In this document: positions 6,150 to 37,841 of the stretch, one piece after another
Layout: each line of letters opens with the position of its first letter
Position numbering within the stretch: the first letter of the stretch is position 1
Assembly: GCA_045539625.1 (NCBI GenBank)
Contig: JAZQFS010000064.1
Location: 4,891-68,890 of the forward strand
From: Eubacteriales bacterium
Lineage (GTDB): Bacteria; Bacillota; Clostridia; Oscillospirales; CAG-382
Direction: 5' to 3'
DNA: 64,000 nt
Notes under the pieces: model-generated
Database searches by the model: none
Told to the model about the DNA's origin: nothing
Seen by the model: only the letters and a program-made list of their open reading frames with translations
Position numbers and translations under genes: made by a program

Positions 6150-6202
6150 AAAGCTTCACCTCCATATGTAAATAAATCGCAATTTTGTGTAAACTTGCGG
6201 CA

Positions 6203-6231
6203 TTGACACCTATCTAAACATAGCATATAAT
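6203..6231 (+). promoter_or_regulatory. Sigma-A promoter of the hexuronate operon
   Basis: Perfect TTGACA-17 bp-TATAAT. Confidence 0.8.
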
Positions 6232-6285
6232 TAGAATAAAGTCAATAGCATAAAATGTAAATTTACAGCTTTACGGAGGGCGAAC

Positions 6286-10834: not shown

Positions 10835-11818
10835 ATGACAAAGGTTGAGCAGGATATCAAGGTTGTTACACGAAACCCCGATTCAGGGGTGTCGATCTGG
10901 GACGTTCAGGTGACGGAGGAAGAGCCGGGGACAAAAAACAATGTAGATCCCAAAATGGTGGAGCTGACAAAGCACCACAGAATGCATAATCACGTATTTA
11001 ATGAAATTGTGCTTGTTGTAAGAGGTGAAGCTAATATCGTATCCATGAATGACGGTATTTCAATCAAAGCGCCCTTTCTTGTTGTTTATCCCGCAGGCGT
11101 GCCTCACGTTCAGATTAACAGCTACGAGCACGGATATAAAAGATACCTTATCAACTGCTTTGACGAGTTTTTTGCAAGAAGCGGGCTTTCGGGCGAGGAA
11201 TACGATGCCATTGCCAACGAGCAGCAGGTTTACGCCATTCAGCTTGAAGAGTCGGAAAAGGAAATTCTTGAAGCCATCTGCAACCTTATAATGACCTTCG
11301 GTGAAGATGAGGTTGAAGCAAAGGAAGAAATGATTTCCATGTTCATACGCCGTGTGGCAAAGCTCAAGTGTAAGGAAAATCTCCTTCGTGAAAGCGATGT
11401 CACCAACTTCGGTAAACACTATTTCGGCTCGCTTTTAAAGTACATTGCCGATAACTGCGGCGAAAAGCTGTCACTGGGTGTGCTTGCTTCCACTTTCTAT
11501 GTCAGCCGTACAAAGCTTGCAACCGACTTTAACGAGGTTATGGGCATGAGTGTGGGTGAATACATATTAAAGGTAAGAATTGACAGGGCAAGAGTAAAGC
11601 TTGTTGACGGCAAGAGTATATCCGAGGTGGCATTTGGTTGCGGTTTTGCTTCCACAAGCTATTTTATACAAAGCTTCAAGAAAATTATGGACATTACCCC
11701 AAAACAGTTTATGGAGACTGTAAGGGCAAAAAAGGATTATGCCAACCTTACGTATCAGAAGACGGAGTTTGATGACTATGTAAGCTTTAATCCAAAAAAA
11801 TACAGAGAAAAGCTATAA
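10835..11818 (+). CDS. AraC-family regulator
   Basis: Cupin H.H motif and double HTH. Paralog of 16195..17142. Confidence 0.9.
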   Translation: MTKVEQDIKVVTRNPDSGVSIWDVQVTEEEPGTKNNVDPKMVELTKHHRMHNHVFNEIVLVVRGEANIVSMNDGISIKAPFLVVYPAGVPHVQINSYEHGYKRYLINCFDEFFARSGLSGEEYDAIANEQQVYAIQLEESEKEILEAICNLIMTFGEDEVEAKEEMISMFIRRVAKLKCKENLLRESDVTNFGKHYFGSLLKYIADNCGEKLSLGVLASTFYVSRTKLATDFNEVMGMSVGEYILKVRIDRARVKLVDGKSISEVAFGCGFASTSYFIQSFKKIMDITPKQFMETVRAKKDYANLTYQKTEFDDYVSFNPKKYREKL

Positions 11819-22481: not shown

Positions 22482-22497
22482 CAATAATTCCATATAT

Positions 22498-22527
22498 AAA
22501 GACGGCTCGAAAGAGTCGTCTTTTTTT
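22498..22527 (+). terminator. Intrinsic terminator
   Basis: AAAGACGGCTC-GAAA-GAGTCGTCTTT followed by a T tract. Confidence 0.85.
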
Positions 22528-22616
22528 GCTTATTCTATTGCATTTTGAAAAATGTAGTGTTATAATACAAGTGAATTGACAAATCAGTTCAAATTTCAGC
22601 TAAAAAGGTGATTATT

Positions 22617-23240
22617 ATGAAGAAAATACTTTTTCAGGGCGACTCCATAACAGACTGCGGAAGAAGCAGAGATAATGACGGCTATAAGGGACACGGCTAT
22701 CCCAATAAGGTTATGGGCGTGCTGGGTTATGACTTCCCCGGTGAATATGAATTTATCAACAGAGGCGTAGGCGGCGACAGAATTGTAAGCGTATACGCAA
22801 GAATAAAGTCTGATATCATCAACTTAAAGCCTGACTATATGAGCCTTCTTATCGGTGTAAACGACGTGTGGCACGAGGTTGGCTGGCAGAACGGCGTAGA
22901 TGCCGAAAAGTTTGAAAAGATTTATGATATGCTTCTTACTGAAATCAAGGAAGCACTTCCTAACATAAAGATTATGCTTTTGGGTGCTTATGTAACAAAG
23001 GGCAAGGCAACAGAGGGAGCATGGGACTACTTCTCGGAAGAAGTTGCAAAGAGAGCAGCTGTTGCCAAGAAGCTTGCCGAAAAGCACGGACTTGTGTATG
23101 TTCCTCTTCAGGAACGCTTTGACGAAGCTATTGCAAAGCAGCCTGAGCCCTACTGGACACAGGAAGGCGTTCATCCCACACCTATGGGACATGAGCTTAT
23201 TGCAAGAGAATGGTTAAAAGCATTTGAAACAATAAAGTAA
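22617..23240 (+). CDS. SGNH/GDSL hydrolase
   Basis: GDSIT, NRGVGG, GVND and EGVHP blocks. Confidence 0.9.
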   Translation: MKKILFQGDSITDCGRSRDNDGYKGHGYPNKVMGVLGYDFPGEYEFINRGVGGDRIVSVYARIKSDIINLKPDYMSLLIGVNDVWHEVGWQNGVDAEKFEKIYDMLLTEIKEALPNIKIMLLGAYVTKGKATEGAWDYFSEEVAKRAAVAKKLAEKHGLVYVPLQERFDEAIAKQPEPYWTQEGVHPTPMGHELIAREWLKAFETIK

Positions 23241-23255
23241 TTACCGTAAAACAAT

Positions 23256-23292
23256 AAGAGAGTCGAAGCAAAATGCCTCGGCTCTCTTTTTT
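23256..23292. terminator. Bidirectional terminator
   Basis: AAGAGAGTCGA...TCGGCTCTCTT between convergent genes. Confidence 0.75.
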
Positions 23293-23304
23293 GTTATATG
23301 CTTT

Positions 23305-23958
23305 TTAAAATTGGTCAAGCTCTTCTTTAAGTGCTTCTCTGAAGTAATCAGCAAAAATATCGTAGCCTTCTTTGTTGAAATGAACACCGTCCTGTACAAA
23401 AATGTCAGGATTTTCAAAAGGCTTGTAGTTATGCAAATCAAGGAAGAAACAGTTGGGCGTGTTTTCAGCAAGTTCTTTTAAAAGGCTGTCATATTCACGC
23501 TTTTTTGCAAGGTTTTCGGGTGTTTCCTCTTTTCTGCGGCAGGATGAGCATAAGTAAATGCGTGTGTCGGGAAAATCAGCTCTTGTATACGCAACCACTC
23601 TTTGTGCAAGTTCAAAACATTCCTCTGTGGAATATCCGAAGCAGCCGCCGTTGCCCGAAGGCTTGTAAACAAGCACCTTTGGTGCTAAAGGCAGTACCAT
23701 TCTGTGATAATAGTATACGTGATGCTCCTCACCGCTTGAACCAAAGCCGCGGTTTATACAGCATTTTGCACCGCTTTTGCCTTTTAACGCTTCTTCAAGT
23801 GGAGTCATGCCCCAGCTTTCTTTCCATCTTGTAAAGTTGGACGGACCGTAAAATACGATTTTTCCTTTTTCTATCGGCTCTTTTTCGTACTCCTGTACAA
23901 CATTTTCCATTGAGCTGATCCAAAGCTCAATAACCTTTAATCCTACTCTTACCGGCAT
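23305..23958 (-). CDS. SGNH/GDSL-like esterase
   Basis: FYGPSNF, NRGFGSS, GN and DGVH blocks. Confidence 0.75.
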   Translation of the reverse strand: MPVRVGLKVIELWISSMENVVQEYEKEPIEKGKIVFYGPSNFTRWKESWGMTPLEEALKGKSGAKCCINRGFGSSGEEHHVYYYHRMVLPLAPKVLVYKPSGNGGCFGYSTEECFELAQRVVAYTRADFPDTRIYLCSSCRRKEETPENLAKKREYDSLLKELAENTPNCFFLDLHNYKPFENPDIFVQDGVHFNKEGYDIFADYFREALKEELDQF

Positions 23959-23977
23959 AATATTTACCTCCTATTAT

Positions 23978-24895
23978 TTACGCACCGTATCTTGTATCAA
24001 GAAAATGGCGCATTACTTTTACTGCAAATTCTGCTGTCTGCTTTTCAAAGTCTTTGCCGAAATGACCGAGACTCAGCTCCATATTGTAAACACCCTTGTA
24101 GCCGATTTCATCAAGTGCATCAAATACATCGTTCCAGTCAATACATCCTGTAAGAGGAATCTTGTGCTGGTCGGTTAAGGTGTCGTTGTCGTTAAGGTGC
24201 AGAACTTCAATTTTGCTTCCCAACATTCTGATAACATCGGCAGGGGAAGGGTTATTGTTAAAACGTAAAGCCTTGTTGGAGTGACCTGTATCGGCACACA
24301 TTACAAAGTAGTCTGCATTGTCGCCGTAAGCGGCAATACGGTTGTAGCTCTTTAAAAACTCATCTGCATTGCCGAAAAAGTCGCAGCACTTTTTGCTGGG
24401 AGCATCGCCGAAGGTTTCGGTAGCAATCTTGATGCCGTACTGCTTTGCAAAGTCAAGGTACTTGCAGAACATTTCAAAGTTTAAGTCACGCATAAGCTTG
24501 GGATCGCAATCGGGACCCATTCTGCAGGTGGTGACGGAGTGCATAACACAAACGGGTGCACCAAGAGTCTTTGCAACAAGACAGTCAAGTCTTGCGTTTT
24601 TTACCATTGCATCGTTCCATTCGGGGTCGTCCGTGAAGCCTTCAATTCTGCCGTGAGTCTGGCTTATTTCAAGACCGATGCTGTCGGCAATGTTCTTTAT
24701 TCCTGTGAAATATGAGATTATTTCATCATCGCTCTTGTGAAAAATGCTGTCTTCCTTGCAGTAGTCATAGTGAGGGTGGCAGGTGTCAAAGTCAACAGCA
24801 TCCGCACCTATGCTTTTTGCAAATCTTATCGCTTCCTCGTCGCCGTACTTTCTCTGAAGACCGCCGATGGAAAAGCCTACCTTTTTGTGTGCCAT
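23978..24895 (-). CDS. Sugar phosphate isomerase/epimerase (TIM barrel)
   Basis: IATET, DTGH, LHLNDN...DQH and NMEL metal-binding motifs. Confidence 0.85.
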   Translation of the reverse strand: MAHKKVGFSIGGLQRKYGDEEAIRFAKSIGADAVDFDTCHPHYDYCKEDSIFHKSDDEIISYFTGIKNIADSIGLEISQTHGRIEGFTDDPEWNDAMVKNARLDCLVAKTLGAPVCVMHSVTTCRMGPDCDPKLMRDLNFEMFCKYLDFAKQYGIKIATETFGDAPSKKCCDFFGNADEFLKSYNRIAAYGDNADYFVMCADTGHSNKALRFNNNPSPADVIRMLGSKIEVLHLNDNDTLTDQHKIPLTGCIDWNDVFDALDEIGYKGVYNMELSLGHFGKDFEKQTAEFAVKVMRHFLDTRYGA

Positions 24896-24908
24896 AACAA
24901 AACTCCCT

Positions 24909-26312
24909 TTATTCTATAGTAACATTGGTAACTCTTTCGCCTGTGTCAATACGAAGTTCATCGAGGCTTTCCATCTTTTTGCCGTTGATAACAATGTTTT
25001 CAAAGTGAACGCCGTCAATGTGAGTATCAGGGGCATTTGCCTTTATGTATGAAGCGGGTGTACGTCCTGCTTCGTCTGTAACATAAATATCCTTGAAGTA
25101 TACGTTCTTGATGTTGCCTGTCCTGTCGTCCTTTGAGTACATTGTTCTCTGGGTTGCAACAACGCAAAGATAAGGCATAAAGTTTTCGTTGGGGTTTACA
25201 TAAACCTGACCAACCTCCTGCTGCATAACAGAGGCGTACCACTTTGCTGTGTACTCACATCGGATATCTTCAAAATAGATGTTGGAAAACTCAGCTCTGT
25301 CGCCGTGCTGAACGTCCATCATAACAGACATTCCGTGGATTATGTCAATGTTTTTAAACTTGATTCCCGAGAAGGAAGGTGCACAGGTTTCTGCACCAAG
25401 CTCAATTGCTCTGCCCCAGTCACACCACAGCACGCAGTTTTCTGCATAGATGTTCTGTACGGGCATGGTGGTGTTTCCGCAAAGTCCCTTTACAACGATG
25501 CAGTCATCGTAGTTACGCAGATAGCTGTTTCTGAGAATACAGTTTGTTGCGTTTGTGAAGTCAACACCGTCGGAATTGTATCTCCACATGCCACAAAGCT
25601 TGATGTTGTCAACAACAACATTCTTGCAGCCCTCATAGTGCATACTCCATGCACTTGCATCAACACAGACAATACCTTCAACGTGTACGTTTTCGCATTT
25701 TCTGAAGTTTACAATTGAACCCTGACCACGCTCAAGCAGACTGTTGTCAACAATTCCGTAGCCCATTATTGTGACGTTCTTTTTTTCAGTTGCGCCGAAG
25801 CCGCCGTAAACAACGGCATCCTTGTCAACGTAAACGGTCTGATTGTCTTCAAGTATAAGCTGTTTTTCAAGATAATGAACACCCGGACCGAAGTAGATTA
25901 CGTTGTCATCATTTTCCGAAACGGAAAATTCCTTTTCAGGATCGATGAATACCGTAACAACATTGTGTGTGTCGTCAAATTCAACGGAATACTGACCGAC
26001 ACCGGGGAAGGTTATGCTTGCTGTGTTGCCGTCCACTTTTGCTGCAACATTCTTTGAAAGAGGGCGGACTGTTACCTTGGAAAATGCCTTTTCGGGGGTG
26101 ATTTCAAGAGTGACTTCTCCGCTTGCTCCAAGAGAAACAAAGCTTGTAGGCTCGGTCTGCTCAATAGGTCTTTGATAGCCCGGCCATACCTGATTTATGG
26201 GATATGCGGAGACAGGAGTGGTTATGGATTTCAATTCCTTGCCTTCGCAGGTGATTCTAAGATTTTCGGAAATTTTGTTATACTTTTCGGGGTAATTATA
26301 TAAAACAGACAT
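24909..26312 (-). CDS. Right-handed beta-helix glycosidase, GH28-like
   Basis: YFGPGVH, NSDGVD and DDCIVVK. Start chosen from the RBS and the promoter at 26344-26372. Confidence 0.65.
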   Translation of the reverse strand: MSVLYNYPEKYNKISENLRITCEGKELKSITTPVSAYPINQVWPGYQRPIEQTEPTSFVSLGASGEVTLEITPEKAFSKVTVRPLSKNVAAKVDGNTASITFPGVGQYSVEFDDTHNVVTVFIDPEKEFSVSENDDNVIYFGPGVHYLEKQLILEDNQTVYVDKDAVVYGGFGATEKKNVTIMGYGIVDNSLLERGQGSIVNFRKCENVHVEGIVCVDASAWSMHYEGCKNVVVDNIKLCGMWRYNSDGVDFTNATNCILRNSYLRNYDDCIVVKGLCGNTTMPVQNIYAENCVLWCDWGRAIELGAETCAPSFSGIKFKNIDIIHGMSVMMDVQHGDRAEFSNIYFEDIRCEYTAKWYASVMQQEVGQVYVNPNENFMPYLCVVATQRTMYSKDDRTGNIKNVYFKDIYVTDEAGRTPASYIKANAPDTHIDGVHFENIVINGKKMESLDELRIDTGERVTNVTIE

Positions 26313-26343
26313 AATGATACCGCCTTTCCTTGTTGATAAGTTG

Positions 26344-26372
26344 ATTATAATACAAATAATGGGTTTTGTCAA
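26344..26372 (-). promoter_or_regulatory. Sigma-A promoter
   Basis: Perfect TTGACA-17 bp-TATAAT on the minus strand. Confidence 0.8.
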
Positions 26373-26386
26373 TCAGAAAAGAGCAG

Positions 26387-27115
26387 TCATCTGAGTGTTT
26401 TTTTCAGCGCATGGCTAAGAGATGAGGCGTATTTGAACCCCGTCATATCTGCTGCAGCCTGAAGTGATGAGCCTGCTGAAACTAACTCCTTTGCAATGCT
26501 TAACCTGAGTCTTGATAAATAAACGTGAGGTGTTATGCCGAAAGCCTTCTTGAATTTTCGGATAAAATAGTCCTCATTGAGAAATAAGTGTTGTGCTATT
26601 TCTCTCACGGTTATATCGTTCATATAATTTTTTTCTATGTACCGTATACTGTCGGTAATGTCGGTGCTTTGCACCTGAGAAACGGGATGCAGCGATAAAA
26701 ACAAAGTCAAAAAAGCCTCTAACGCTTTTGCGGCGATATCTTTGTTTTGCTGAATGGGTGATGCCTTGAAATTTGCTGCTGTGCTTTCCATTATATGAAG
26801 AAAAACGGGGAAAAGAGGGTGTTCATCAATTGATGCACAGATAAAGGATGCAGATACTGCTGACGGAGTCATTATAAAGTTGTAAAAAAGATGGTCAAGC
26901 CTGTCATTTGGATCCTGTCTGATTATAAAAGGAAGTGTGGAGGGGAAAAGGTAGAAATGATTGTGCTTTAACAAGACTTCCTCGGTGCCTGTGCGGAAAT
27001 AGGCAGAACCGCCTGTTACATAATAGAGTCTGTAGGGTGTAGGTATATCCTGAGTAAGCCAGTTTACAGGTGCTTTACACTTGCCGCAGGCAAGTAAGTT
27101 TACATTTACTTTGAT
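26387..27115 (-). CDS. AraC-family regulator; probable start at ATC 27115, longer than the ORF-track call
   Basis: Frame open to 27127 and encodes cupin-like RLYYVTGGSAYF. GAGGA RBS lies 9 nt before ATC. C-terminal HTH present. Confidence 0.7.
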   Translation of the reverse strand: MKVNVNLLACGKCKAPVNWLTQDIPTPYRLYYVTGGSAYFRTGTEEVLLKHNHFYLFPSTLPFIIRQDPNDRLDHLFYNFIMTPSAVSASFICASIDEHPLFPVFLHIMESTAANFKASPIQQNKDIAAKALEAFLTLFLSLHPVSQVQSTDITDSIRYIEKNYMNDITVREIAQHLFLNEDYFIRKFKKAFGITPHVYLSRLRLSIAKELVSAGSSLQAAADMTGFKYASSLSHALKKTLR

Positions 27116-27257
27116 AAGAACACTTCCTCAAAGTCGATTTTGAACAATGGTATTTACAATTGCAGTTATTTACAAGTGTCATTGTTTGTTTTACACTTAA
27201 TTATAACACAGGCAAATGATGTGTACAAGATTTTTCACAAAAAAGGAGCAAATAAAA

Positions 27258-28214
27258 ATGACAAACAAGGAATGGTTTAAAAAAGCGGGCTTCGGAATGA
27301 TGCTTCACTGGGGGCTGTATTCTCTTCTCGGCGGTGAGTGGAAGGGACAGAGAATGGATTATATCGGAGAATGGGTAATGTCAAAATACCGTATTCCAAA
27401 TAAGGAATACGAAAAGCTTGCGGGTATATTCAATCCTATATATTTTGATGCCGAGGAATGGGTAAAAAGTGCAAAAAATGCAGGTATGGAATATATGGTT
27501 TTTACGTCCAAGCACCACGAAGGCTTTGCTATGTTTCACTCGAAGGTTGACAAGTATAATGTGGTAGATGCAACGCCCTTTAAGAGGGATGTTGTGTATG
27601 AGCTTGCCAATGCCTGTGCTCGTCACAATATGAAGTTTGGACTGTATTATTCACAGATACTTGACTGGCATGAGCAAAACGGCGGAGGCTACGAATCCCG
27701 TAAAGCCAATTTTGGTATGAGCTGGGATAACGACTGGGACTTTCCCGAAAAAAGCAAAAAGGATTATTTGCAGTGCTATGAGAAGAAAATAAAGCCTCAG
27801 GTTAAGGAAATTCTGACACAGTACGGCGACCTTTGTCTTATATGGTTCGACAACGGCTCGGTGGGGATCCCCGCACAGTGCTCAAAGGAGCTGCTGGATA
27901 TGGTTAAGCATTATCAGCCCGACTGTCTTGTAAATTCCAGAATAGGTAACGGAATGGGCGACTACCGTTCCTGCGGTGACAATGAGCTGCCCGATGCAAG
28001 TATGACAGATGAGCTTATTGAATCCCCCATCACCCTTAATAAAACCTGGGGATACAAGTCATTTGACAATGAATGGAAAAGTGCCGATAAAGTCAAAGAA
28101 ATTCTTGATAAATGCAAGTCTCACGGTGCAAATTTATTGCTTAACATAGGTCCTGACGGACTTGGACGGTTGCCTGCACCTGCAATTGATATTCTTAATT
28201 CGGTAAGACAGTAA
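27258..28214 (+). CDS. Alpha-L-fucosidase, GH29
   Basis: FGMMLHWGLYS, TSKHHEGF, IWFD, LLLNIGP. Confidence 0.9.
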   Translation: MTNKEWFKKAGFGMMLHWGLYSLLGGEWKGQRMDYIGEWVMSKYRIPNKEYEKLAGIFNPIYFDAEEWVKSAKNAGMEYMVFTSKHHEGFAMFHSKVDKYNVVDATPFKRDVVYELANACARHNMKFGLYYSQILDWHEQNGGGYESRKANFGMSWDNDWDFPEKSKKDYLQCYEKKIKPQVKEILTQYGDLCLIWFDNGSVGIPAQCSKELLDMVKHYQPDCLVNSRIGNGMGDYRSCGDNELPDASMTDELIESPITLNKTWGYKSFDNEWKSADKVKEILDKCKSHGANLLLNIGPDGLGRLPAPAIDILNSVRQ

Positions 28215-28438
28215 AAAAATGACCACTGACGGGTTTGTCAGTGGTCTGAAGGAGCATTCAAGTGCTCCTTTTTTTAGTCAAATATATCTTCTTTTTCTTT
28301 GTCAAAGGACAGAATACTTCCGTCCTCGGCAGATACTTCAATGTCGTACTCATAGCTGCCTGCTTTAAATTCGATGTCGTAGTAAAGTACTCCGTCATCT
28401 CTGTCAAGCTCGACTTTTACAAATTTTGCATCCTTTGC
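28189..28438. repeat. 250-bp inverted repeat, copy A
   Basis: Reverse complement of 35724..35973 with 4 mismatches by manual alignment. Confidence 0.95.
28274..28438 (-). pseudogene. 3' fragment of the PepSY gene
   Basis: Encodes AKDAKFVKVELDRDDG...KEDIFD*, matching the C-terminus of 35280..35888. No signal peptide or good RBS. Confidence 0.85.
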
Positions 28439-28564
28439 ATATCGGATAAAGTATCCTTTGTAAAAAGCAAACACTTTCTACGGACAAGCTTTGCCATCTC
28501 CCTTTCGGCTGCCACACTCTTTTGGGTTTACCGAATAATTATATGACGTTTTTTGTGATACATA

Positions 28565-28593
28565 TTGACATAGTGTGACATATTATGTATAAT
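28565..28593 (+). promoter_or_regulatory. Sigma-A promoter
   Basis: Perfect TTGACA-17 bp-TATAAT. Confidence 0.8.
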
Positions 28594-28625
28594 TTAGTCA
28601 GTAAATATATTGGAGGTATTTTATT

Positions 28626-29045
28626 ATGGCTTTTTGTACCAACTGCGGCACACAGGTTGCCGATGATGCAGTTTTTTGCAGCAATTGCGGCGCTTCTTTA
28701 AAAGCAGAGTCTCAGGCTCCCGAAAACAGCGTACCCGTGGCAGCTCCCACTGTTGCACCTCAGGTAAATCCTGCTCCTGCATATACTATGCCATCGGCGG
28801 AAGCACCTGCAGACGAGCCTGCCAAAGGCTTTGCCATTGCTTCAATGGTTTGCGGTATCGTTGCATTTTTCTGCTTCGGTATTATCTTGGGCGTATTGGC
28901 TATTGTATTCGGATACATCGCAAAGAACAAGGGCAACAACGGAAGTATGGCAAAGGCAGGCTTTATCCTCGGCATTATTGCAACGGCACTGTCCTTAGTT
29001 TCACTTGTGGTTTGCACACCGATCTTCTGCGCTGCAGGATTATAA
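28626..29045 (+). CDS. Zinc-ribbon plus DUF4190-like membrane protein
   Basis: FCTNCG...FCSNCG, Pro/Ala linker, two TM helices (AIASMVCGI...LAIVFG). Confidence 0.8.
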
Positions 29046-29162
29046 ATCATTTTCGTCAACAAAATCGAGAAGCTTCATTTTGAGGCTTCTTTTTTTGCAT
29101 CAAAAAACTGCCTTTACCTTGTTACGAGTAAAGACAGTCTTTTTGTTTTTGCGAAAATTCAG

Positions 29163-31958
29163 TTATCTTTTATAGGAAAGCTCCTCGGTAGCCTGAATAA
29201 CCTCTTCAAGCATTTCGGCAGCTCTGCCAATGTTGTCGATATAATTCTGATAAATCCATCTCCAGTGGTCGCTTGTCTGAGCTGCCTGCAGCTCTGCCGC
29301 ACGCTGCTTCTTTGCTTCAAGCTCGGTGTAGCCCTGACTTGTTACGGTTCTTTCAACCATCAACATCATCTGATAGTTGTATCCGAGGGTGTGACGGGCT
29401 GCATTGTCCTCGTCAAACTTTGTCATGGCAACATCTGTTTCCATCTCGTCAATGTAGCCTAACGAATACATAAATGACTGCGCCATAAGATGGTGTCCCA
29501 AGGTATTGGGGTGAACAAAGTCATTGCTTATATATTTCTGAGAACAGATGGGATACATATTTCCAAAGTGGTCAACAACCTTAAGGTCATTTTCCTTTGC
29601 AATTTCCTTAATTATTTCGGCACACTTTGCAAGTCCCACGCTTCTTTCGTATACGGTGTCTGTCACATCGTCATAAGGAGTGGGTGTACAAAGTATAACC
29701 TCAACGCCGTAGCCGAGAAGCTTGTCAACAATAGCTCTCATATTTGCTTCATATTGGTCAAGCTGAGCCTGTCTTCTTGCTTCTATTTCCTCGCTGTACT
29801 CGCCCTTCTTATAGTTACCGCCCGAAATATCATTCATACCGAACATAATGGCAACGATATCGGGGTTGTAGCCCATAAGCTCAGAATCGATTCTGTTAAG
29901 ACCGCCTGCCGCAGTATCTCCGGGAATACCTACGTTATACATTTCAATTCTTCCCATTTCCTTGTCGCTGTCAAGGTAAACCTGGAAAAGCTCCTTGATG
30001 TAGGTGCCGTTCTGGGTAATACTGTCACCGAAGAAGCATACCGTCTTATTGGGAAGATTTTTTGTCTTGTTAAGAATATTCATTACATATTCCTCTCTGT
30101 TACCGTCATCGTATGCGTTCTGTGCAATATCACGGATACTTCTTACGATTTCATCTCCGTAGGAGTAGTTTTCCCCTACCTTTGCATACGCTCTTACAAC
30201 AAGCTTATTCTGATATGCAGGCTCGCCGATTTCGGTAAGCACCCCTGTAAAGAATATGCCTTCAACGTCCTTCCAGTAAGCACTGCCGAACACCGAGCCG
30301 TCTGTTGCATACACTTCATCAATACCCTTTTCCTTATTGTAAGCCGCACCGTAAACATACTTTACTCCGTCAGGACTTGTGCCCGAAGTGTCACTTGTGT
30401 TTGTGCCAAATACAAGCTGATTGTCGCCAAGGAGAGATTTTCTTGTTACGATAAAGCCGTACTCGTCTGCATCAGCCTTATTTTCGTTTGTAATATAGCC
30501 TGCAAATCTCATACCCTGCTTGCCTTGTGTACGGATACTGTTCTTTCTGATTGTTACGGGACGGAACTTGCTCCAGACTGCGGTAATTGTAAGAGAATCG
30601 GCGTCGCCTGTGCTTAACTTTTCGCCTGCCTTGTAAATTTTGGTATCAATGCTGTTCTTCCAGCCGTCAAAGGTATGGCCTTCCTTTGTAAGGGTACATT
30701 CGGGCAAGGTCAAAACCGAGTTTTTAACAAAACAGATTTCGGGAACCGTACCCTCGGCACCGCCTGCATTTACCGTTGCATAAATATATGGCTTGAAGTA
30801 AGCACGGATATTATCAAGGTAAATCTTTTCATCTTCAAGAAGATTTGAGCCGCCGAATCTGAAATAATTTACGGACACAAGATTTGGCTTTTCATTTGTT
30901 CCGTGAACCGCCATGGGCGTCTGCCATCTCTTTGCTGTTATGATGTTGGTTTCGTCACGGTAGCGGTTGTCGCCGGATGCTGCAGGATTGCAGGTAAAGC
31001 CGTTATGGAAAGCCCATTTCTGTGCAGTTTCCACTTCGGTATACGCATCCATAAGCATTGTGAATTCGCCCGGTTCCTCAAGCTTATAGCCAACACTGAT
31101 AAAGGGATACTTGTATGAGCCCTTACTTATAAGCTCAACAACCTTTGTTGTGTTAGTGCCTGTTCCGTTTACAACCTTATAGGACTTACACTGGTCAGCA
31201 GGTGCCATACCTGTTGAGCCTGCCTTGCAGTAGTAAACGGTTGAAGGAACGGAGTCGATTTCATAGCTTTCAAAATCGTCAAACAAAAGACATTCGCCGT
31301 AAAGCTTTTCTTCTTCAAGCACCCACTGAGGTTTAACGGGAACGGCAGGAGTTTCGGGCTCGGGAGTCGGTGCAGGCTCGGGCTCAGGCTCTTCACCGGG
31401 GAATTTTACATAGTCAAGAGCAAACTTTTTTCCCGTGCCGTTTTCGGGGTCAATTCTTAAAGATGTAACAATACCCTTCCAGTAAGGAACATCATCTCTG
31501 TCAATTGTCAGTGTTACAAAATCATCAAGACTGCCGCTTGACTGGAATTTGAATCTTCTTGAGTTTGCAACGTAGCTCTGCTCGCCGGTGTCTCCCTTTT
31601 CCCAAGGCTTACAGAACCAGCTTCCGTCCTCGGGATTCTTGGAAGTAAAGAATATTTCAAGAGTTCCGCTTGTGATCTCGGTTGCAAATCGTATTTCAAT
31701 CTGCTTGCACTTATCTGCATTTACAACGCCGTAAGGTGATTTTACGGGATCATACGGTCTGCTGATATAAATCTGAGGATCGGCGTCTGTCATATCAAAG
31801 GTCAGAACACCGTTTTCAACCTTGCCGTTGGCTGTGTGTCCGCCGATAGAGGCATATCCCATTGCGCCGTCGTCGAAATCCACGGTAATTGCACAGGCAC
31901 ATACCGCAAGCACAGCACACATAACAAGTGCAACTGTCATACCAAATAATCTTTTCAT
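29163..31958 (-). CDS. Secreted modular SGNH hydrolase (RLD-type domain, CBM-like domain, B-repeat-like unit, shared SIR..G.RF domain, SGNH)
   Basis: AGGAG RBS and signal peptide. PEP linker. FFGDSIT, NVGIPG, GMND and DFVHP blocks. Confidence 0.8.
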   Translation of the reverse strand: MKRLFGMTVALVMCAVLAVCACAITVDFDDGAMGYASIGGHTANGKVENGVLTFDMTDADPQIYISRPYDPVKSPYGVVNADKCKQIEIRFATEITSGTLEIFFTSKNPEDGSWFCKPWEKGDTGEQSYVANSRRFKFQSSGSLDDFVTLTIDRDDVPYWKGIVTSLRIDPENGTGKKFALDYVKFPGEEPEPEPAPTPEPETPAVPVKPQWVLEEEKLYGECLLFDDFESYEIDSVPSTVYYCKAGSTGMAPADQCKSYKVVNGTGTNTTKVVELISKGSYKYPFISVGYKLEEPGEFTMLMDAYTEVETAQKWAFHNGFTCNPAASGDNRYRDETNIITAKRWQTPMAVHGTNEKPNLVSVNYFRFGGSNLLEDEKIYLDNIRAYFKPYIYATVNAGGAEGTVPEICFVKNSVLTLPECTLTKEGHTFDGWKNSIDTKIYKAGEKLSTGDADSLTITAVWSKFRPVTIRKNSIRTQGKQGMRFAGYITNENKADADEYGFIVTRKSLLGDNQLVFGTNTSDTSGTSPDGVKYVYGAAYNKEKGIDEVYATDGSVFGSAYWKDVEGIFFTGVLTEIGEPAYQNKLVVRAYAKVGENYSYGDEIVRSIRDIAQNAYDDGNREEYVMNILNKTKNLPNKTVCFFGDSITQNGTYIKELFQVYLDSDKEMGRIEMYNVGIPGDTAAGGLNRIDSELMGYNPDIVAIMFGMNDISGGNYKKGEYSEEIEARRQAQLDQYEANMRAIVDKLLGYGVEVILCTPTPYDDVTDTVYERSVGLAKCAEIIKEIAKENDLKVVDHFGNMYPICSQKYISNDFVHPNTLGHHLMAQSFMYSLGYIDEMETDVAMTKFDEDNAARHTLGYNYQMMLMVERTVTSQGYTELEAKKQRAAELQAAQTSDHWRWIYQNYIDNIGRAAEMLEEVIQATEELSYKR

Positions 31959-32103
31959 TTGTTTTCTCCTTTTCAACAAATATATGTATACTGAAACACA
32001 AATATATATTAACACACTACAAAAAAATGTCAATTACAAGATATTAATATCGTTCTGCATTTCAGCTCAGGCTGCCCTCAAATTTATTAAAAACATTCAA
32101 ATT

Positions 32104-32802
32104 TTACTTGCCGCCACTTTGTCTTTTTTCCATTTTCATCCAGCAGTAAAAGCCGTACAGGTCATTTGCAAGAAATGCCGCAAAGCAGATAACAACCGAA
32201 ACGTAGGATATATCGTAAAAGGATGCCATTATCCACAAAACAATAAGAACAATGTCATTAAGTGCATAAACAAGAGCATAGTAAGGGCTTCTTCTGAAGG
32301 TAAGATAAGCGGCACAAAAGCTTGTTGTTACCGAAACGGTGCTGGGGGCAAGATTACTTGTACCAAGCTCTTTAAGAATAAAGTAAAATATCACCGTCAT
32401 GGCAAGGGTGAGAAAAGAAAGGAATATCCATTCTTTCTTTGATATCCTGTTAACCCTGACAACAGACCTGTTGCCGTTGTACGGATTTTTCAGCCACGAC
32501 ACAAGCGAAAACACCGCCATAGGCACTGTCATACCGATATATGTTATCATTTCTCCGTAATATGAAAATGAATAAGATATAACCCCATACAAAGAACCGA
32601 AGACTATCATCAGCACCTGTCCGAAGGGATTGCCCTTGGCACAGAATATAAGGCTCGTAACTCCTACAAGGGAGGCTATAAGCGTAAGTGTGCTTCCTCT
32701 GTCAAAAATAAGATAGGACAAGGTTATCAGAAGCACCGACACCGTCCACAGAATTTTCTCCGTTTTTGTAAAACTGCCGTATATCTTTTTTACCGTATTC
32801 AT
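32104..32802 (-). CDS. pnuC: PnuC-family transporter
   Basis: About 7 TM helices; SLIFCAKGNP.GQ, YYGEMITY and YALNDIVLIVLW. Confidence 0.8.
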   Translation of the reverse strand: MNTVKKIYGSFTKTEKILWTVSVLLITLSYLIFDRGSTLTLIASLVGVTSLIFCAKGNPFGQVLMIVFGSLYGVISYSFSYYGEMITYIGMTVPMAVFSLVSWLKNPYNGNRSVVRVNRISKKEWIFLSFLTLAMTVIFYFILKELGTSNLAPSTVSVTTSFCAAYLTFRRSPYYALVYALNDIVLIVLWIMASFYDISYVSVVICFAAFLANDLYGFYCWMKMEKRQSGGK

Positions 32803-32814
32803 AAAATCCTCCGT

Positions 32815-32905
32815 AAAAAAAAGCATCCGTCCTTCACATCTTCTAAGACCTAACGATGTGAAAACGAATGCCTGACTGCATTTTTCTACCCGGTGGCAGA
32901 TTCAA
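32815..32905 (-). ncRNA. Guanidine-IV riboswitch
   Basis: P1 UCUGC-CACCGG-GUAGA, then a long terminator hairpin with an AGGUCUUAGAAG loop region and U8. Lies between a promoter and pnuC, a known gene partner of this class. Confidence 0.8.
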
Positions 32906-32922
32906 TATTTATTTCCTTGCGT

Positions 32923-32951
32923 ATTATAGCACGTATTTTTGCAAAAATCAA
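32923..32951 (-). promoter_or_regulatory. Promoter of riboswitch-pnuC
   Basis: TTGATT-17 bp-TATAAT. Confidence 0.75.
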
Positions 32952-33000
32952 GGGCTTTTATAATAAAGTTAATCATATTCATAATTGCATCAATTCATTT

Positions 33001-33015
33001 TTGTAATCGTTACAA
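33001..33015. promoter_or_regulatory. PerR/Fur-like box TTGTAATCGTTACAA
   Basis: Palindromic. Identical to 35209..35223. Confidence 0.7.
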
Positions 33016-33030
33016 TTTACAATTTGTACA

Positions 33031-33059
33031 TTGATTTTTGCAAAAAGACATAGTATAAT
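33031..33059 (+). promoter_or_regulatory. Ferritin promoter
   Basis: TTGATT-17 bp-TATAAT. Confidence 0.75.
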
Positions 33060-33134
33060 AGTACCGTAAAGAGAAAACAACCTCTCTTGACACCGCAGAC
33101 AATTAATATTAATCAATATAATGAGGTGACAGAA

Positions 33135-33647
33135 ATGTTGGACGCAAAGGTTTCACAGTTAATCAACGAGCAGATAGCAAAGGAGCTTTACTCAGCTTAT
33201 CTCTATCTTGACTTTTCAGTATTCTATGAAAGAGAAGGTCTTGACGGCTTTGCTAACTGGTATATGGTTCAGGCACAGGAGGAAAGAGACCATGCGATGC
33301 TTATGTTAAAGTATCTTCAGCTTAACGGCGAAAAGGTAACTCTTCTCCCCATCGACAAACCCGACAAGGAGCTTAAGGCTCTTATGGATCCCTTAAAGGC
33401 AGGTCTTGAGCACGAGCAGTACGTAACAAGTCTTATACATACAATTTACGATGCTGCATATACTGCAAAAGACTTCAGAACAATGCAATTCCTTGACTGG
33501 TTTGTAAAGGAACAGCTTGAAGAAGAAAAGAACGCCGACGATATGATTAAGAAAATGGAGCTTTTCGGCACAGATTCCAAAGGTCTTTACAGCCTTGACA
33601 GCGAATATGCTGCAAGAATCTACACTGCTCCCTCGCTTGTACTTTAA
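33135..33647 (+). CDS. ftnA: Non-heme ferritin
   Basis: ELYSAYLY, QAQEERDHA, EHEQYV, FLDWFVKEQLEEE. GAGGTG RBS before ATG 33135. Confidence 0.9.
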   Translation: MLDAKVSQLINEQIAKELYSAYLYLDFSVFYEREGLDGFANWYMVQAQEERDHAMLMLKYLQLNGEKVTLLPIDKPDKELKALMDPLKAGLEHEQYVTSLIHTIYDAAYTAKDFRTMQFLDWFVKEQLEEEKNADDMIKKMELFGTDSKGLYSLDSEYAARIYTAPSLVL

Positions 33648-33678
33648 TTAAAATTATAATTTTTGGAGGTATTTAATT

Positions 33679-33834
33679 ATGAAAAAGTATATTTGCCCTT
33701 GCGGATACGAGTATGATCCCGAAGTAGGAGATCCCGAAAACGGCATTGCTGCAGGTACTGCATTTGAAGATCTTCCCGAAGACTGGGTATGCCCCGTTTG
33801 CGGACTTGACAAGGACGCTTTTGAGGAAGAATAA
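33679..33834 (+). CDS. rub: Rubredoxin (51 aa), missed by the ORF track
   Basis: [51 protein letters not shown]; GGAGG RBS. Confidence 0.9.
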
Positions 33835-33883
33835 TAACACACAATAACAATGTTCGGGCAGCTTGTGAATTATCGCAGGCTGC

Positions 33884-33912
33884 TTGACTTTTATCCCGGA
33901 TAATGGTATAAT
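33884..33912 (+). promoter_or_regulatory. fprA promoter
   Basis: TTGACT-17 bp-TATAAT with extended TG, directly after a hairpin at about 33857-33885. Confidence 0.7.
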
Positions 33913-33950
33913 TATCGGGACAAGCCAAAAAGCTCAAGGAGTGAAAGAAC

Positions 33951-35108
33951 ATGGAAATTTCAAGCACCGTAAAATACATAGGCATCAATGACAGAATAAT
34001 TGATTTATTTGAAGGACAGTATCCCGTACCACAGGGTATTTCCTACAATTCCTACATAATACTTGACGAAAAAATCGCAGTAATGGATACCATCGATGTA
34101 AAGTTTACGTCGGTCTGGCTTGACAACATCAAAGCTGTTCTCGGCGATAAAAAGCCCCACTACCTTGTTGTTCACCATATGGAGCCTGACCACTCGGCAA
34201 GCATTATGGACTTTGTGAAAGAGTATCCCGATGCTAAAATCGTTGCCTCCGCAAAGGCTTTCGGTATGATGAAACAGTTCTTTGACTATGATTTTTCCGA
34301 AAAGCAGATAACCGTAGGCGACGGAAGCACTCTTGAGCTTGGAAGCCGCACTCTCACCTTCTTTACCGCACCTATGGTACATTGGCCTGAGGTTATTGTT
34401 TCATACGACAGCCTTGAAAATATTCTGTTCTCGGCAGATGCTTTCGGCAAGTTCGGCGACCTTGATGCACAAGACAACTGGGACGATGAAGCAAGACGAT
34501 ACTACATCGGCATTGTAGGCAAGTACGGTTCTCAGGTGCAGGCACTTTTAAAGAAGGCTTTGGCTCTTGACGTTAAGATGATCTGCCCCCTTCATGGGCC
34601 CGTTCTCAAAGAAAACCTTGATCATTACATAGGTCTTTACAACACCTGGTCAAGCTACACTCCCGAGGAGGACGGCGTCGTTATTGCCTATACCTCCGTT
34701 TACGGCAACACCAAAAAGGCGGTTATGCTGTTAAAGGAAAAGCTGGAAGAAAAGGGCTGCAAAAATGTTGCCGTTTATGACCTTGCAAGATGCGACAAGT
34801 TCCTTGCAATCAGCGAAGCTTTCAGATACAGCAAGCTTGTTCTTGCAACCACCACCTACAACAGTGCAATATTCCCCTTTATGCAGACCTTTATAAACGG
34901 CCTTACCGAAAGAGGCTTCAAAAACAGAAAGGTTGCTCTTATCGAAAACGGCTCATGGGCACCTGTTGCCGCAAAGCTTATGCGTGATGCGCTTGAAGGC
35001 TGCAAGGATATAACATATTGCGAAAACAGCGTAAAAATTCTCTCGGCTCTTAACGGAGAAAGTCTTGACTGCCTCGAAGCACTCGCCAAGGAGCTTTCCG
35101 CCGAATAA
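33951..35108 (+). CDS. fprA: Flavodiiron protein (A-type flavoprotein)
   Basis: SYNSY, HHMEPDH, MVHWPE, FSADAFG, PLHGP and flavodoxin YTSVYGNT. Confidence 0.9.
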   Translation: MEISSTVKYIGINDRIIDLFEGQYPVPQGISYNSYIILDEKIAVMDTIDVKFTSVWLDNIKAVLGDKKPHYLVVHHMEPDHSASIMDFVKEYPDAKIVASAKAFGMMKQFFDYDFSEKQITVGDGSTLELGSRTLTFFTAPMVHWPEVIVSYDSLENILFSADAFGKFGDLDAQDNWDDEARRYYIGIVGKYGSQVQALLKKALALDVKMICPLHGPVLKENLDHYIGLYNTWSSYTPEEDGVVIAYTSVYGNTKKAVMLLKEKLEEKGCKNVAVYDLARCDKFLAISEAFRYSKLVLATTTYNSAIFPFMQTFINGLTERGFKNRKVALIENGSWAPVAAKLMRDALEGCKDITYCENSVKILSALNGESLDCLEALAKELSAE

Positions 35109-35175
35109 CATAATACTTTTGTCATATACTAAAGTCATGGATTTTTTCTATGGCTTTATTTTTTTCAAAAAACTA

Positions 35176-35241
35176 TTGACAAATAAAAAAATGTGTGATA
35201 TATTTTAATTGTAATCGTTACAATGTTATATCGATTACAAA
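35176..35241 (+). promoter_or_regulatory. Promoter plus PerR/Fur-like boxes
   Basis: TTGACA-17 bp-TATATT, then TTGTAATCGTTACAA (35209-35223) and a second half-match ending GATTACAA. Confidence 0.75.
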
Positions 35242-35279
35242 CGATGGTGAGTAAAAAACTGTAAAGGAGATGATTACAC

Positions 35280-35888
35280 TTGAAAAGACGTTTTATCGCA
35301 TTGGCTGCAGGGCTGACAACTGTGTTCGGAATTACCGCAGGCGTCATTGCCGCAGACAAGATAAAAGAAGTTTCGGCGCAGATAAGGCAAGACTTCACCG
35401 TAAAAATTGACGGCGAAGAAAAAGTTTTTAAAAATGCAAGCGGTGAGGTTGTATATCCTCTTCTTCACGACGGCACCACCTATCTTCCCGTCCGTGCAAT
35501 CGGAGAGATTATGGGCAAAAAGGTATACTGGTATGAAGATGACAAGAGAATTGAATTAAAGGACGAAAAATCCACCGTCACCGATGCCGACGTTATTGTT
35601 ACAGGCGAAAGCGGCAGCTCAGATCAAAAAAACGTGGTGCAAAAGCCCGTATCGGCAGAGCAGACGCAAAGCATCACCAAGGACAAGGCAAAGGAGCTTG
35701 CTCTTAAAAAAGCAGGCGTTGCCGCAAAGGATGCAAAATTTGTAAAAGTCGAGCTTGACAGAGATGACGGAGTACTTTACTACGACATCGAGTTTGAAGC
35801 AGGCAGCTATGAGTACGACATTGAAGTATCTGCCGATGACGGAAGTATTCTGTCCTTTGACAAAGAAAAAGAAGATATATTTGACTAA
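35280..35888 (+). CDS. Secreted protein with copper-amine-oxidase-N-like (stalk) domain and C-terminal PepSY domain
   Basis: Signal peptide; GTTYLPVRAIGE; ITKDKAKELAL...YYDIEF..YEYDIEVSADDGSIL. Confidence 0.8.
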   Translation: MKRRFIALAAGLTTVFGITAGVIAADKIKEVSAQIRQDFTVKIDGEEKVFKNASGEVVYPLLHDGTTYLPVRAIGEIMGKKVYWYEDDKRIELKDEKSTVTDADVIVTGESGSSDQKNVVQKPVSAEQTQSITKDKAKELALKKAGVAAKDAKFVKVELDRDDGVLYYDIEFEAGSYEYDIEVSADDGSILSFDKEKEDIFD

Positions 35889-35973
35889 AAAAAGGAGCAC
35901 TTGAATGCTCCTTCAGACCACTGACAAGCCCGTCAGTGGTCATTTTTTTACTGTCTTACCGAATTAAGAATAT
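35724..35973. repeat. 250-bp inverted repeat, copy B
   Basis: Contains the PepSY 3' end, two hairpins and the reverse complement of the last 26 nt of the fucosidase gene. Confidence 0.95.
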
Positions 35974-36210
35974 TTCGCCATGCTTCTACAGAAGTAATTT
36001 CCCAAGGGTACTGTGGAAATATTTATATATAAATTCCAAATTCAATAATACTTATCTGTACTTAAAATTGCGTAACAGCTTTATCAAGGCGAGCCTTATT
36101 TCAATTTTTAGTCAAAATTTGAAATGAGAACACAAAATTTTAGCTGTTATTTTCATTTAATCGCTTAAGTGATGATAAGTACACGAAACATTCTCATCAT
36201 AAAAACGCAT

Positions 36211-36242
36211 AAAAACGGAGGTTGAGCAACCTCAACCTCCGT
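36211..36242 (-). terminator. Intrinsic terminator downstream of the orphan rbr 3' end
   Basis: ACGGAGGTTGAG-GTTG-CTCAACCTCCGT followed by TTTT on the minus strand. Confidence 0.75.
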
Positions 36243-36270
36243 ATCAAATCGTATCTATTTGTATCTAATC

Positions 36271-36324
36271 TTACTTAAAATAGCGGTTTAAGAGTCCTTC
36301 AAACGCTTTGCCGTGGCGAGCTTC
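36271..36324 (-). pseudogene. Orphan recoded copy of the rubrerythrin 3' end (att-like)
   Basis: Encodes EARHGKAFEGLLNRYFK* versus [17 protein letters not shown] at 37118..37171. Confidence 0.85.
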
Positions 36325-37117
36325 ACAATGGGACTTGTTTACAGAACCCTTGATTTTACTGGGTTCCTGTAATTTTTTCTCATTTTGCCCACCAACTGCC
36401 CACCATTTTGTTTAGCCCACCATTTTGAAAAATAATCACAAAATATGTTAATGTTTTGTCTTCTAATTACTATGGGAATTATCAATCTTTTTTGTTGAAA
36501 TAAAACTTAATTTGTGACTTGTTGCCTATGGTCATTTTTTCATATGTAATTTTAATATCATTTCCTTCCCATTCAATATGAGTTAATGGGTATTTCCCTA
36601 TTGTTTTGTTTTCATTGGTAGTTTGTTTATAATTATCATCAAAATACTCAACCATTTCATCTATATTTTCGGTAGAGCAAGTCGATACATCATAAATAAC
36701 TCTTGAAAGAGAATCATCATCAAAATAGAACACAGAAATAACATCTTCATTTTCAAAGAATTCAACATTTTGTCTTTTATATCCTACCATATTGTTATCT
36801 TTATCTTCTCCAAAAAACTCATCATTATAACATAACTTTTCAATATCTTCGTATGACATATCAAATTTGAAATCAAGTACATTATTATCACTACCACAAG
36901 ATGACATCATAAAAATAGATAATACAACACATAGCAAACATAATATTTTTTTCATAATACAATTAACTCCTAACATTAATTTTAATATACTGTTTCATAA
37001 ATTATACTACATATTTGTCAAAAAATCAATGGTTTAACAAAAATACACATAAAAGAAACAAAAGAAATAAAAAACCCACCAACCTAAAATGATTGGTGGT
37101 TGGTGGGTTGGGTTATC
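36325..37117. mobile_element. Putative integrase-less islet inserted at the rbr 3' end
   Basis: Bounded by the two rbr 3' ends. AT-rich. CCCACCA repeats at both ends. One cargo gene. Confidence 0.6.
36482..36955 (-). CDS. Hypothetical lipoprotein, AT-rich
   Basis: MKKILCLLCVVLSIFMMSSC lipobox. A sampled 60-nt line has 28% GC. Confidence 0.75.
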   Translation of the reverse strand: MKKILCLLCVVLSIFMMSSCGSDNNVLDFKFDMSYEDIEKLCYNDEFFGEDKDNNMVGYKRQNVEFFENEDVISVFYFDDDSLSRVIYDVSTCSTENIDEMVEYFDDNYKQTTNENKTIGKYPLTHIEWEGNDIKITYEKMTIGNKSQIKFYFNKKD

Positions 37118-37660
37118 TTATTTAAAATATCTTTTAAGCAGACCTTCAAAGCCTTTGCCATGTCTTGCTTCGTCTCTTGCCATTTCATGAACTGTATCAT
37201 GAATAGCATCAAGACCAAGTTCCTTAGCACGCTTAGCAAGGTCGAACTTGCCTGCAGTTGCACCGTTTTCAGCGTCAACTCTCATTTCAAGATTCTTCTT
37301 TGTGGAATCAGTTACAACTTCGCCGAGAAGCTCTGCAAACTTAGCTGCGTGTTCTGCTTCTTCGTAAGCTGCCTTTTCCCAGTAAAGTCCGATTTCGGGA
37401 TAGCCTTCTCTGTGAGCAACTCTTGCCATTGCAAGGTACATACCAACTTCTGTACATTCGCCTTCAAAATTAGCTCTCAGATCCATGAGAATGTCTTCTC
37501 TAACGCCCTGAGCTACGCCTACAACGTGCTCTGCTGCCCATGTCTTTTCGCCTGCCTGCTCGTTAAACTTGCTTGCAGGAACTCCGCACTGAGGGCACTT
37601 TTCGGGTGCTGCATCGCCTTCGTGAACATAACCGCATACTGAACATACAAACTTTTTCAT
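37118..37660 (-). CDS. rbr: Reverse rubrerythrin (N-terminal rubredoxin domain)
   Basis: CSVC...CPQC, then a diiron four-helix domain (EEAEH, DEARH). Confidence 0.9.
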
Positions 37661-37735: not shown

Positions 37736-37783
37736 TTGTATTGATTACAAAGTTATTATAACAACAACTTTCGATTTTGTCAA
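37736..37783 (-). promoter_or_regulatory. rbr promoter with operator
   Basis: TTGACA-17 bp-TATAAT. 37736..37767 is identical to 5285..5316. Confidence 0.85.
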
Positions 37784-37841
37784 TAGGTTTTTGAAAAAAA
37801 GTTTATTTTTTTTGAAAAAAGTTTTTTGCCCGGCCTTTTTG

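Follow-up and report, generated by a model that had tools for sequence, protein, structure and literature searches.

Copies of a convergent fucosidase/PepSY gene junction flank an inverted 7.3-kb block in a Clostridia genome

Anatomy of the locus and its two arms

In the genome of an uncultured Eubacteriales bacterium of the Clostridia (order Oscillospirales, GenBank assembly GCA_045539625.1), a unique block of about 7.3 kb, carrying genes for ferritin, rubredoxin and a flavodiiron protein among others, lies between two inverted copies of a convergent gene end, here called arms A and B. The window that we analysed (G000:C64:4891-68890) is a stretch of 64,000 nt on an 80.9-kb contig, JAZQFS010000064.1, of a metagenome-style assembly that comprises 134 contigs and 2.72 Mb and is 97% complete. 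Numbered from the first nucleotide of the window, the features at the locus are as follows.

27216–28214, plus strand: GH29 alpha-L-fucosidase, intact, in the left non-inverted flank (Pfam PF01120, E 2.8e-72)
28189–28438: arm A, made up of the final 26 nt of the fucosidase gene, a pair of terminator hairpins and a PepSY 3′ fragment of 165 nt
28221–28246, minus strand: hairpin 1, a 10-bp stem and then a T-run on the minus strand; the PepSY terminator in the ancestral junction
28248–28271, plus strand: hairpin 2, a 10-bp stem and then a T-run on the plus strand; the fucosidase terminator
28274–28438, minus strand: PepSY 3′ pseudogene fragment of 165 nt (AKDAKFVKVELDRDDGVLYYDIEFKAGSYEYDIEVSAEDGSILSFDKEKEDIFD, then a stop codon), without a signal peptide
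28439–35723: unique block of 7285 nt, inverted relative to the lineages that keep the old gene order (tblastn synteny with G001:C227 and G013:C98; also L033)
28565–28593, plus strand: sigma-70 promoter with a 12/12 match (TTGACA-17-TATAAT), ahead of the zinc-ribbon gene and just inside the first junction, J1
28626–29045, plus strand: zinc-ribbon/DUF4190 membrane protein, species-specific
29163–32033, minus strand: secreted SGNH/GDSL hydrolase, 956 aa
32104–32826, minus strand: PnuC-type transporter of nicotinamide riboside or nicotinamide mononucleotide
33087–33647, plus strand: ferritin
33679–33834, plus strand: rubredoxin, 51 aa (Pfam PF00301 on the orthologue in contig L027)
33951–35108, plus strand: FprA-like flavodiiron protein (ODP metallo-beta-lactamase fold and flavodoxin)
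35280–35888, plus strand: intact 202-aa secreted protein with Cu_amine_oxidN1 and PepSY domains
35724–35973: arm B, made up of the 3′-terminal 165 nt of the intact PepSY gene, then both hairpins and an orphan fucosidase tail of 26 nt
35891–35914 and 35916–35941: the hairpins of arm B
35948–35973, minus strand: the orphan 26-nt fucosidase tail
35974–36271: AT-rich spacer to the right of arm B, flanking the distal breakpoint
36272–36325, minus strand: orphan rubrerythrin 3′ end (EARHGKAFEGLLNRYFK, then a stop codon), which marks the original rubrerythrin terminus

A repeat search of the window returns the inverted pair 28189–28438 / 35724–35973 with 250 nt per arm, 98% complementarity and 7285 nt in between. 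In a MAFFT alignment the arms differ by 4 mismatches, at arm-A positions 28234, 28325, 28366 and 28370, which leaves a longest mismatch-free run of 90 nt (234 nt in other strains), and the similarity breaks off sharply at both ends of each arm. The arms adjoin the block exactly, at 28438/28439 and 35723/35724, in inverted orientation. BLAST searches, including a self-comparison of the genome, find exactly two copies of the arm sequence in the 2.72-Mb assembly (E values of 6e-128 and 1.5e-122), and a chance origin of the pair is therefore excluded. The initial annotation had reported a 250-bp inverted duplication with 4 mismatches, the gene ends that each copy contains and AT-rich DNA starting where copy B ends; these descriptions are borne out by the repeat search and alignment, by the open reading frame (ORF), Pfam, hairpin and stub analyses and by a G+C fraction of 0.29 at 36000–36999, respectively.

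The block itself holds the genes for the zinc-ribbon/DUF4190 protein, SGNH hydrolase, PnuC, ferritin, rubredoxin and FprA, together with the 5′ three quarters of the PepSY gene. On its left, the fucosidase ORF, whose homologues (318 aa) begin at 27258, has its last 26 nt inside arm A. The stretch of two hairpins has a folding energy of −33 kcal/mol (z = −6), and the terminators are crossed, each of the convergent transcripts meeting the hairpin of the other gene before its own. In their coding part the arms differ at 3 nt, which gives 2 amino-acid changes within the last 55 PepSY codons. The PepSY stub in arm A comprises 54/55 of the final PepSY codons, and its sole in-frame upstream start is a GTG without a ribosome-binding site. 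Gene callers on other assemblies annotate this stub as a 66-aa ORF with a GTG start (28274–28474, minus strand) and a weak PepSY match; being a remnant, this ORF has no place in a count of PepSY proteins.

The arms are built from a pair of gene ends with their terminators and are not a mobile element. We rejected a reading of the hairpins as a dispersed element resembling repetitive extragenic palindromes (REP-like), as this genome holds just the two copies. No match to the serine or tyrosine recombinase families PF00239 and PF00589 was found on the 80.9-kb contig C64, transposase families not having been scanned one by one; in agreement with the earlier statement that no invertase is nearby, no dedicated invertase adjoins the element on this contig. 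RecA is present in the genome, and a search for Ku gave no match there and a match in the control genome of Bacillus subtilis.

Both arms in independent assemblies

The assembly that contains the window is one of 134 metagenome-style contigs, several of them ending in repeats of about 141 nt, and the second copy or its orientation could in principle have been invented by the assembler from a mixture of strains. The initial annotation had voiced the same doubt, over a strain chimera or a misassembly, and had taken a single copy of the junction as the mark of the latter. To the comparison we brought assembled contigs and Logan k=31 contigs, covering 12 Logan runs, 9 contigs with the zinc-ribbon gene and all contigs with the fucosidase gene; those of other strains were reached through the fucosidase 90% cluster, near-identical PepSY proteins and the zinc-ribbon protein of contig L027. 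The genome studied here derives from metagenomes of the ruminant gut, and because no public run exceeds 60% of the sampled words, all runs found hold other strains. Look-ups by exact sequence brought up no records for four proteins of the window (PepSY, zinc-ribbon, the 164-aa lipoprotein-like one and rubrerythrin), and arm and border patterns scanned against JGI metagenome contigs and GTDB representative genomes gave no matches.

Five independent contigs contain a whole arm with both of its borders.

L027, arm A: 20.9-kb megahit contig, 95.7% identical over 18.6 kb to window 17215–35836
L031, arm A: 98.3% identical
Run X4, arm A: 687-nt Logan contig covering 27942–28628
L039, arm B: intact PepSY, the arm and AT-rich DNA to 36324, 96.4% identical
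Run X10, arm B: 395-nt contig with the AT-rich flank, the arm and intact PepSY

All five share the orientation of the window; they stem from strains about 93–98% identical and from no fewer than 4 studies or sample sets. Many further contigs from other assemblies end inside the arm; such breaks could be held in favour of an artefact, and they are also what is expected at repeats. Further, the k=31 graph of run X1 has the pattern expected of a true two-copy repeat. Its 234-nt core contig has a depth of 11.6, about double, and four distinct flanks, the contigs of which end exactly k − 1 = 30 nt within the arm; the outer flanks have depths of 6.2 (fucosidase side) and 4.7 (AT-rich side), the inner flanks 9.4 (zinc-ribbon side) and 7.9 (intact-PepSY side). 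Both junctions recur in independent assemblies made by different assemblers from strains 2–7% divergent, as well as in k=31 graphs from other samples, where the core has four flanks and doubled depth, and we consider invention by an assembler exceedingly improbable. Neither an assembly echo nor a misassembly or strain chimera accounts for the inverted repeat, and the earlier doubt is settled.

Ancestral gene order and exchange between the arms

The old gene order is fucosidase → ← PepSY ← FprA ← rubredoxin ← ferritin, PnuC → SGNH → ← rubrerythrin, and is kept in two congeners and in two further lineages known solely from metagenome contigs. In contig G001:C227, tblastn of the window proteins gives AraC (−), fucosidase (+), PepSY (−), FprA (−), ferritin (−), PnuC (+) and SGNH hydrolase (+); in G013:C98, it gives PepSY (−), FprA (−), ferritin (−), PnuC (+), SGNH (+), rubrerythrin (−) and then the genes of the window's right flank, at 96–98% amino acid identity. 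The former contig fixes the orientation of the block relative to the left flank and the latter relative to the right flank, and both orientations are opposite to that of the window. Similarly, L033 has fucosidase → ← PepSY ← FprA ← rubredoxin, as in the ancestral order, and L037/L038 have fucosidase facing a full 204-aa PepSY. Because the old-order lineages carry block 28439–35723 in the opposite orientation, the block is inverted in this species.

The convergent fucosidase/PepSY junction is single-copy in G001, L033 and L037/L038, and the arm is present in two copies in the genome studied here. By this comparison, the arms are the old junction in duplicate, crossed terminators included. The initial annotation had claimed just this, that one ancestral junction was duplicated when the block inverted, and had proposed synteny with relatives as a check; the single junction and opposite block orientation in the old-order lineages, with the un-inverted order in G001:C227, G013:C98 and L033, uphold it. 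As the fucosidase protein of L037/L038 is 99% identical, we also considered these contigs as a flipped-back form of the present strain and rejected that reading: their PepSY gene is a different allele, the nucleotide identity dropping to about 75% at the stop codon, and the flanks are mosaics. They represent a non-inverted lineage.

Two side observations concern the genes of the old junction. In one congener lineage, a short form of PepSY of 121–123 aa stands beside the fucosidase gene (L026, which is G001:C227, at 5956–6318; L033 at 10994–11359); it has a signal peptide and the PepSY domain, without the copper-amine-oxidase-N-like domain, and hairpin 1 is missing beside it (a 22-nt gap). Separately, the fucosidase gene with hairpin 1 (window 27216–28249) is 96–100% identical in lineages whose neighbouring DNA is 75–80% identical (L035, L036, L037 and L034; runs X6, X8 and X12), L035 having an overall identity of 80% and L037 being a mosaic. 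No fewer than five different contexts follow downstream, starting at or just past the hairpins, for example with divergence at 28249 in X6 and X12. This pattern suggests that lineages have recently exchanged the fucosidase gene and that breaks recur in the terminator region.

The two arms of the inverted pair exchange sequence with each other. In an alignment of all available arms of the window and of other strains, the A arms of L027, L031, L028 and L032 share the A/T haplotype at 28303/28324 with the B arm of L039, and L027 has T at 28324 in both arms. In L040 and L041 it is the B arm that carries the window's arm-A haplotype (T..T at 28366/28370), 0 mismatches being seen over 202 nt, and the C..C of the window's arm B is found on A arms of other strains. 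In runs X1–X3, the arms are identical over 234 nt, with a sole difference at offset 235 (28423/35739). Arms group by strain and not by position, and therefore evolve in concert through homologous exchange. These patterns point to RecA-type exchange (gene conversion) between the arms, mostly without crossover, that would keep them near-identical.

Exchange between inverted arms raises the question of whether the block flips. If RecA acted on the 250-bp arms so that the 7.3-kb block switched often, both isomers would coexist in populations, and expression of the ferritin–rubredoxin–FprA–PepSY oxidative-stress genes might shift through their replication or transcription context. RecA is present, the arms are identical without a break over 90 nt in the window and over 234 nt in other strains, and variants move between them; moreover, L040 and L041 have the window's arm-A haplotype beside intact PepSY, on contigs that end 48 nt short of the outer border and are compatible with either orientation. 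By contrast, the arm-spanning contigs are all (5/5) in one orientation, and neither junction of the flipped state, which would join fucosidase, arm and intact PepSY of this allele on one side and AT-rich DNA, arm and zinc-ribbon flank on the other, was seen in the 12 Logan runs, the 9 zinc-ribbon contigs or any of the fucosidase contigs. No invertase is nearby, and flipping would leave the proteins, gene ends and terminators near-identical and move no promoter relative to a gene. Of the earlier claim of a flippable block, the part that stands is the recombination between the copies, which share variants; active flipping has no support in these contigs, and we think frequent switching quite unlikely. 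We conclude that the locus is a lineage-fixed inversion scar with mostly non-crossover conversion and presumably no switching function.

Comparison with known invertible DNA leads in the same direction. Like invertons, shufflons and the Hin/Gin/Cin systems, the locus is a DNA block between inverted repeats. Unlike them, it has no invertase nearby, its arms are 250-bp gene ends where theirs are recombinase sites of 10–40 bp, it has been seen in one orientation, and no promoter or alternative gene end is swapped, the fucosidase and PepSY ends being near-identical in both states. As in inversions between insertion sequence (IS) elements, rRNA operons or prophages, the arms, once formed, served as a homologous substrate, in this case for gene conversion; unlike such inversions at pre-existing repeats, the arms are single-copy in the old-order lineages and two-copy only here.

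Origin of the inversion

To the right of arm B, the spacer at 35974–36271 is original DNA downstream of rubrerythrin, because the orphan rubrerythrin 3′ end follows it and strains diverge at 36321–36324, where L039 and an X4 contig part from the window and carry other DNA. The orphan end is 79% identical at the nucleotide level to the real 3′ end at 37118–37175, and the distal break lies about 300 nt from the original stop of that gene. Beyond the orphan end, the window has a 0.8-kb AT-rich insert (to 37117) with a 164-aa lipoprotein-like ORF (36482–36976) that has no Pfam match. L039 carries at the same site (its positions 1244–4427) a 316-aa ORF and an AraC regulator that are absent from this genome. 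The 3′ site of rubrerythrin looks like a hot spot with alternative inserts.

The ancestral order would have been fucosidase → (crossed terminators) ← PepSY ← FprA ← rubredoxin ← ferritin, PnuC → SGNH hydrolase → (← zinc-ribbon gene), spacer, ← rubrerythrin. The first breakpoint region would have straddled the tight convergent fucosidase/PepSY junction and the second would have lain in the spacer downstream of rubrerythrin. The block would then have rejoined in reverse, with the 250 bp between two offset cut or switch points now standing at both block ends, inverted. Both genes are complete as a result, each with both terminators, and the leftovers are the 165-nt PepSY stub beside the fucosidase gene and the 26-nt fucosidase stub beside PepSY. 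As the terminators are crossed, the copied stretch holds both hairpins, and only an event that copied both would leave both genes properly terminated; this need may be the reason that this product survived.

As to chemistry, we favour a replication error in which the template was switched twice. The nascent strand would have been copied to 28438 and switched there to the opposite strand at the distal site; the block would then have been copied backwards through the 250 bp, and a second switch would have led back to the spacer at 35974, at an ATAT microhomology. This 4-nt microhomology lies at junction J2 (35973/35974), between 35970–35973 and 28439–28442, and the first joint has none. Template switching is preferred over staggered breaks with end joining because the genome lacks Ku. 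The staggered break that the initial annotation had proposed is a conjecture as to chemistry, and its classical version needs end joining. Remodelling of a tandem inversion duplication, said to be a model of the Roth laboratory for which a literature search gave nothing usable, would need two extra deletions; we rejected it as the origin and keep it only as a variant of template switching.

The same product could have arisen in two steps, if a 250-bp inverted copy of the junction had first been placed near the downstream region of rubrerythrin, for example during traffic of small islets targeting the 3′ end of that gene, and the block had been flipped later by homologous recombination. The apparent hot spot in the right flank, with the orphan rubrerythrin 3′ end at 36272–36325 and cargo after 36324 that differs among strains, lends this some appeal. 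However, non-mobile DNA whose ends lie in two genes would have to have undergone a short inverted transposition for which there is no explanation, the end of arm B is about 300 nt away from the stop of the orphan rubrerythrin and not at an islet border, and no strain among the contigs examined has the copy present and the block un-inverted. We regard the two-step route as unlikely. Another proposal combines the two-switch replication error at crossed convergent terminators with arms that are still a live substrate, the block toggling rarely in nature without an invertase. This joint claim we find rather improbable; if it were true, duplication-associated inversions would have a general fragile site at tight convergent gene ends, in bacteria without end joining.

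Rearrangements of this kind were reportedly conceptualized by Furuta and colleagues in 2011 (PNAS 108:1501), in Helicobacter pylori, under the name DNA duplication associated with inversion, or DDAI, which is known here from secondary descriptions. As far as those descriptions go, the present locus resembles DDAI in that the unique segment of one breakpoint recurs inverted at the far end of the inverted block, partial gene copies remain as stubs and the new homology supports further homologous recombination. Here, the block is inverted with respect to outgroups, the copied stretch is single and non-repetitive in relatives, the copies are inverted at the block ends, and the arms, being gene ends with terminators on a contig (C64) without a PF00239 or PF00589 match, trace to no mobile element or site-specific recombinase. 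Unlike DDAI as so described, the copied piece is a convergent gene-end junction with crossed terminators, there is no functional gain or loss, the host is of a Ku-less gut Clostridia type and the arms exchange sequence across wild strains. DDAI has also been invoked for Thermus tengchongensis (PMC8963470).

A further parallel comes from the Drosophila melanogaster group, in which inverted duplications of ancestrally unique sequence, with a median of 321 bp, lie at the ends of inversions, 12 of 18 such inversions being duplicated at one breakpoint only (Ranz et al. 2007, PMC1885836). The present one-sided duplication of 250 bp fits these staggered-break inversions. Unlike the Drosophila model, which ends in eukaryotic non-homologous end joining, it stands in a genome without Ku, and the joining chemistry here is probably different, by template switching or microhomology-mediated joining.

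The locus is an ordinary, already described kind of rearrangement scar, with no new mechanism and no working switch. It is of interest as a clean wild example in a Ku-less gut anaerobe, with both breakpoints present in several strains of the species and the arms in concerted evolution, and it shows an inversion cutting a tight convergent gene pair with neither gene harmed, because the junction and both terminators were copied. The duplicated pair of crossed terminators, the exchange between arms in wild strains and the Ku-less host are the particular twist of the case. For the explanation as a whole, namely an inversion scar with a duplicated junction that is carried by several strains, arose presumably by template switching, has its arms kept alike by conversion and performs no switching, we estimate a probability of roughly 0.8.

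Several points weigh against this explanation. The arm-spanning contigs are few (five and the window), and as the data are assembled contigs only, a flipped form in the minority would go unseen. An assembler may assign a variant within a repeat to the wrong copy, although the k=31 graphs agree with the contigs on the variants. The case for template switching consists of the missing Ku and of a 4-nt microhomology that one joint has and the other lacks, and the end product of the two-step route would be indistinguishable from that of a one-step DDAI. Finally, the ancestral distal junction is retained in no relative: the zinc-ribbon gene has no homologue in any of the 13 congeners searched (13/13), because of which the ancestral distal joint is unreadable from relatives and neither a blunt distal break nor the prior presence of the zinc-ribbon gene is demonstrable.

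Elsewhere in this genome (G000), other inverted pairs of 130–210 nt and 95–99% identity lie 1.5–30 kb apart on single contigs, several of them at contig ends; they include C5:6884-7092 / 15269-15477, C16:27090-27303 / 28825-29037 and pairs at the ends of C13, C25, C47 and C92. A dispersed intergenic repeat or additional inversion scars could account for them. Three contigs of 4.5–5.1 kb, C117, C72 and C94, have exact direct overlaps of 115–141 nt between their own two ends, the usual sign of small circular molecules, here perhaps plasmids or phages binned with the genome.

Within the window, boxes of about 30 nt that are related to one another (TATTATAGCACGTATTTTTGCAAAAATCAA and its variants) lie at 32922–33060, upstream of ferritin, and at 37001–37035, near rubrerythrin, and a 65-nt similarity links the upstream regions of PepSY and rubrerythrin (35159–35223 / 37736–37800). 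The boxes and this similarity are probably a shared operator of a peroxide/iron regulon that would include the PepSY protein.

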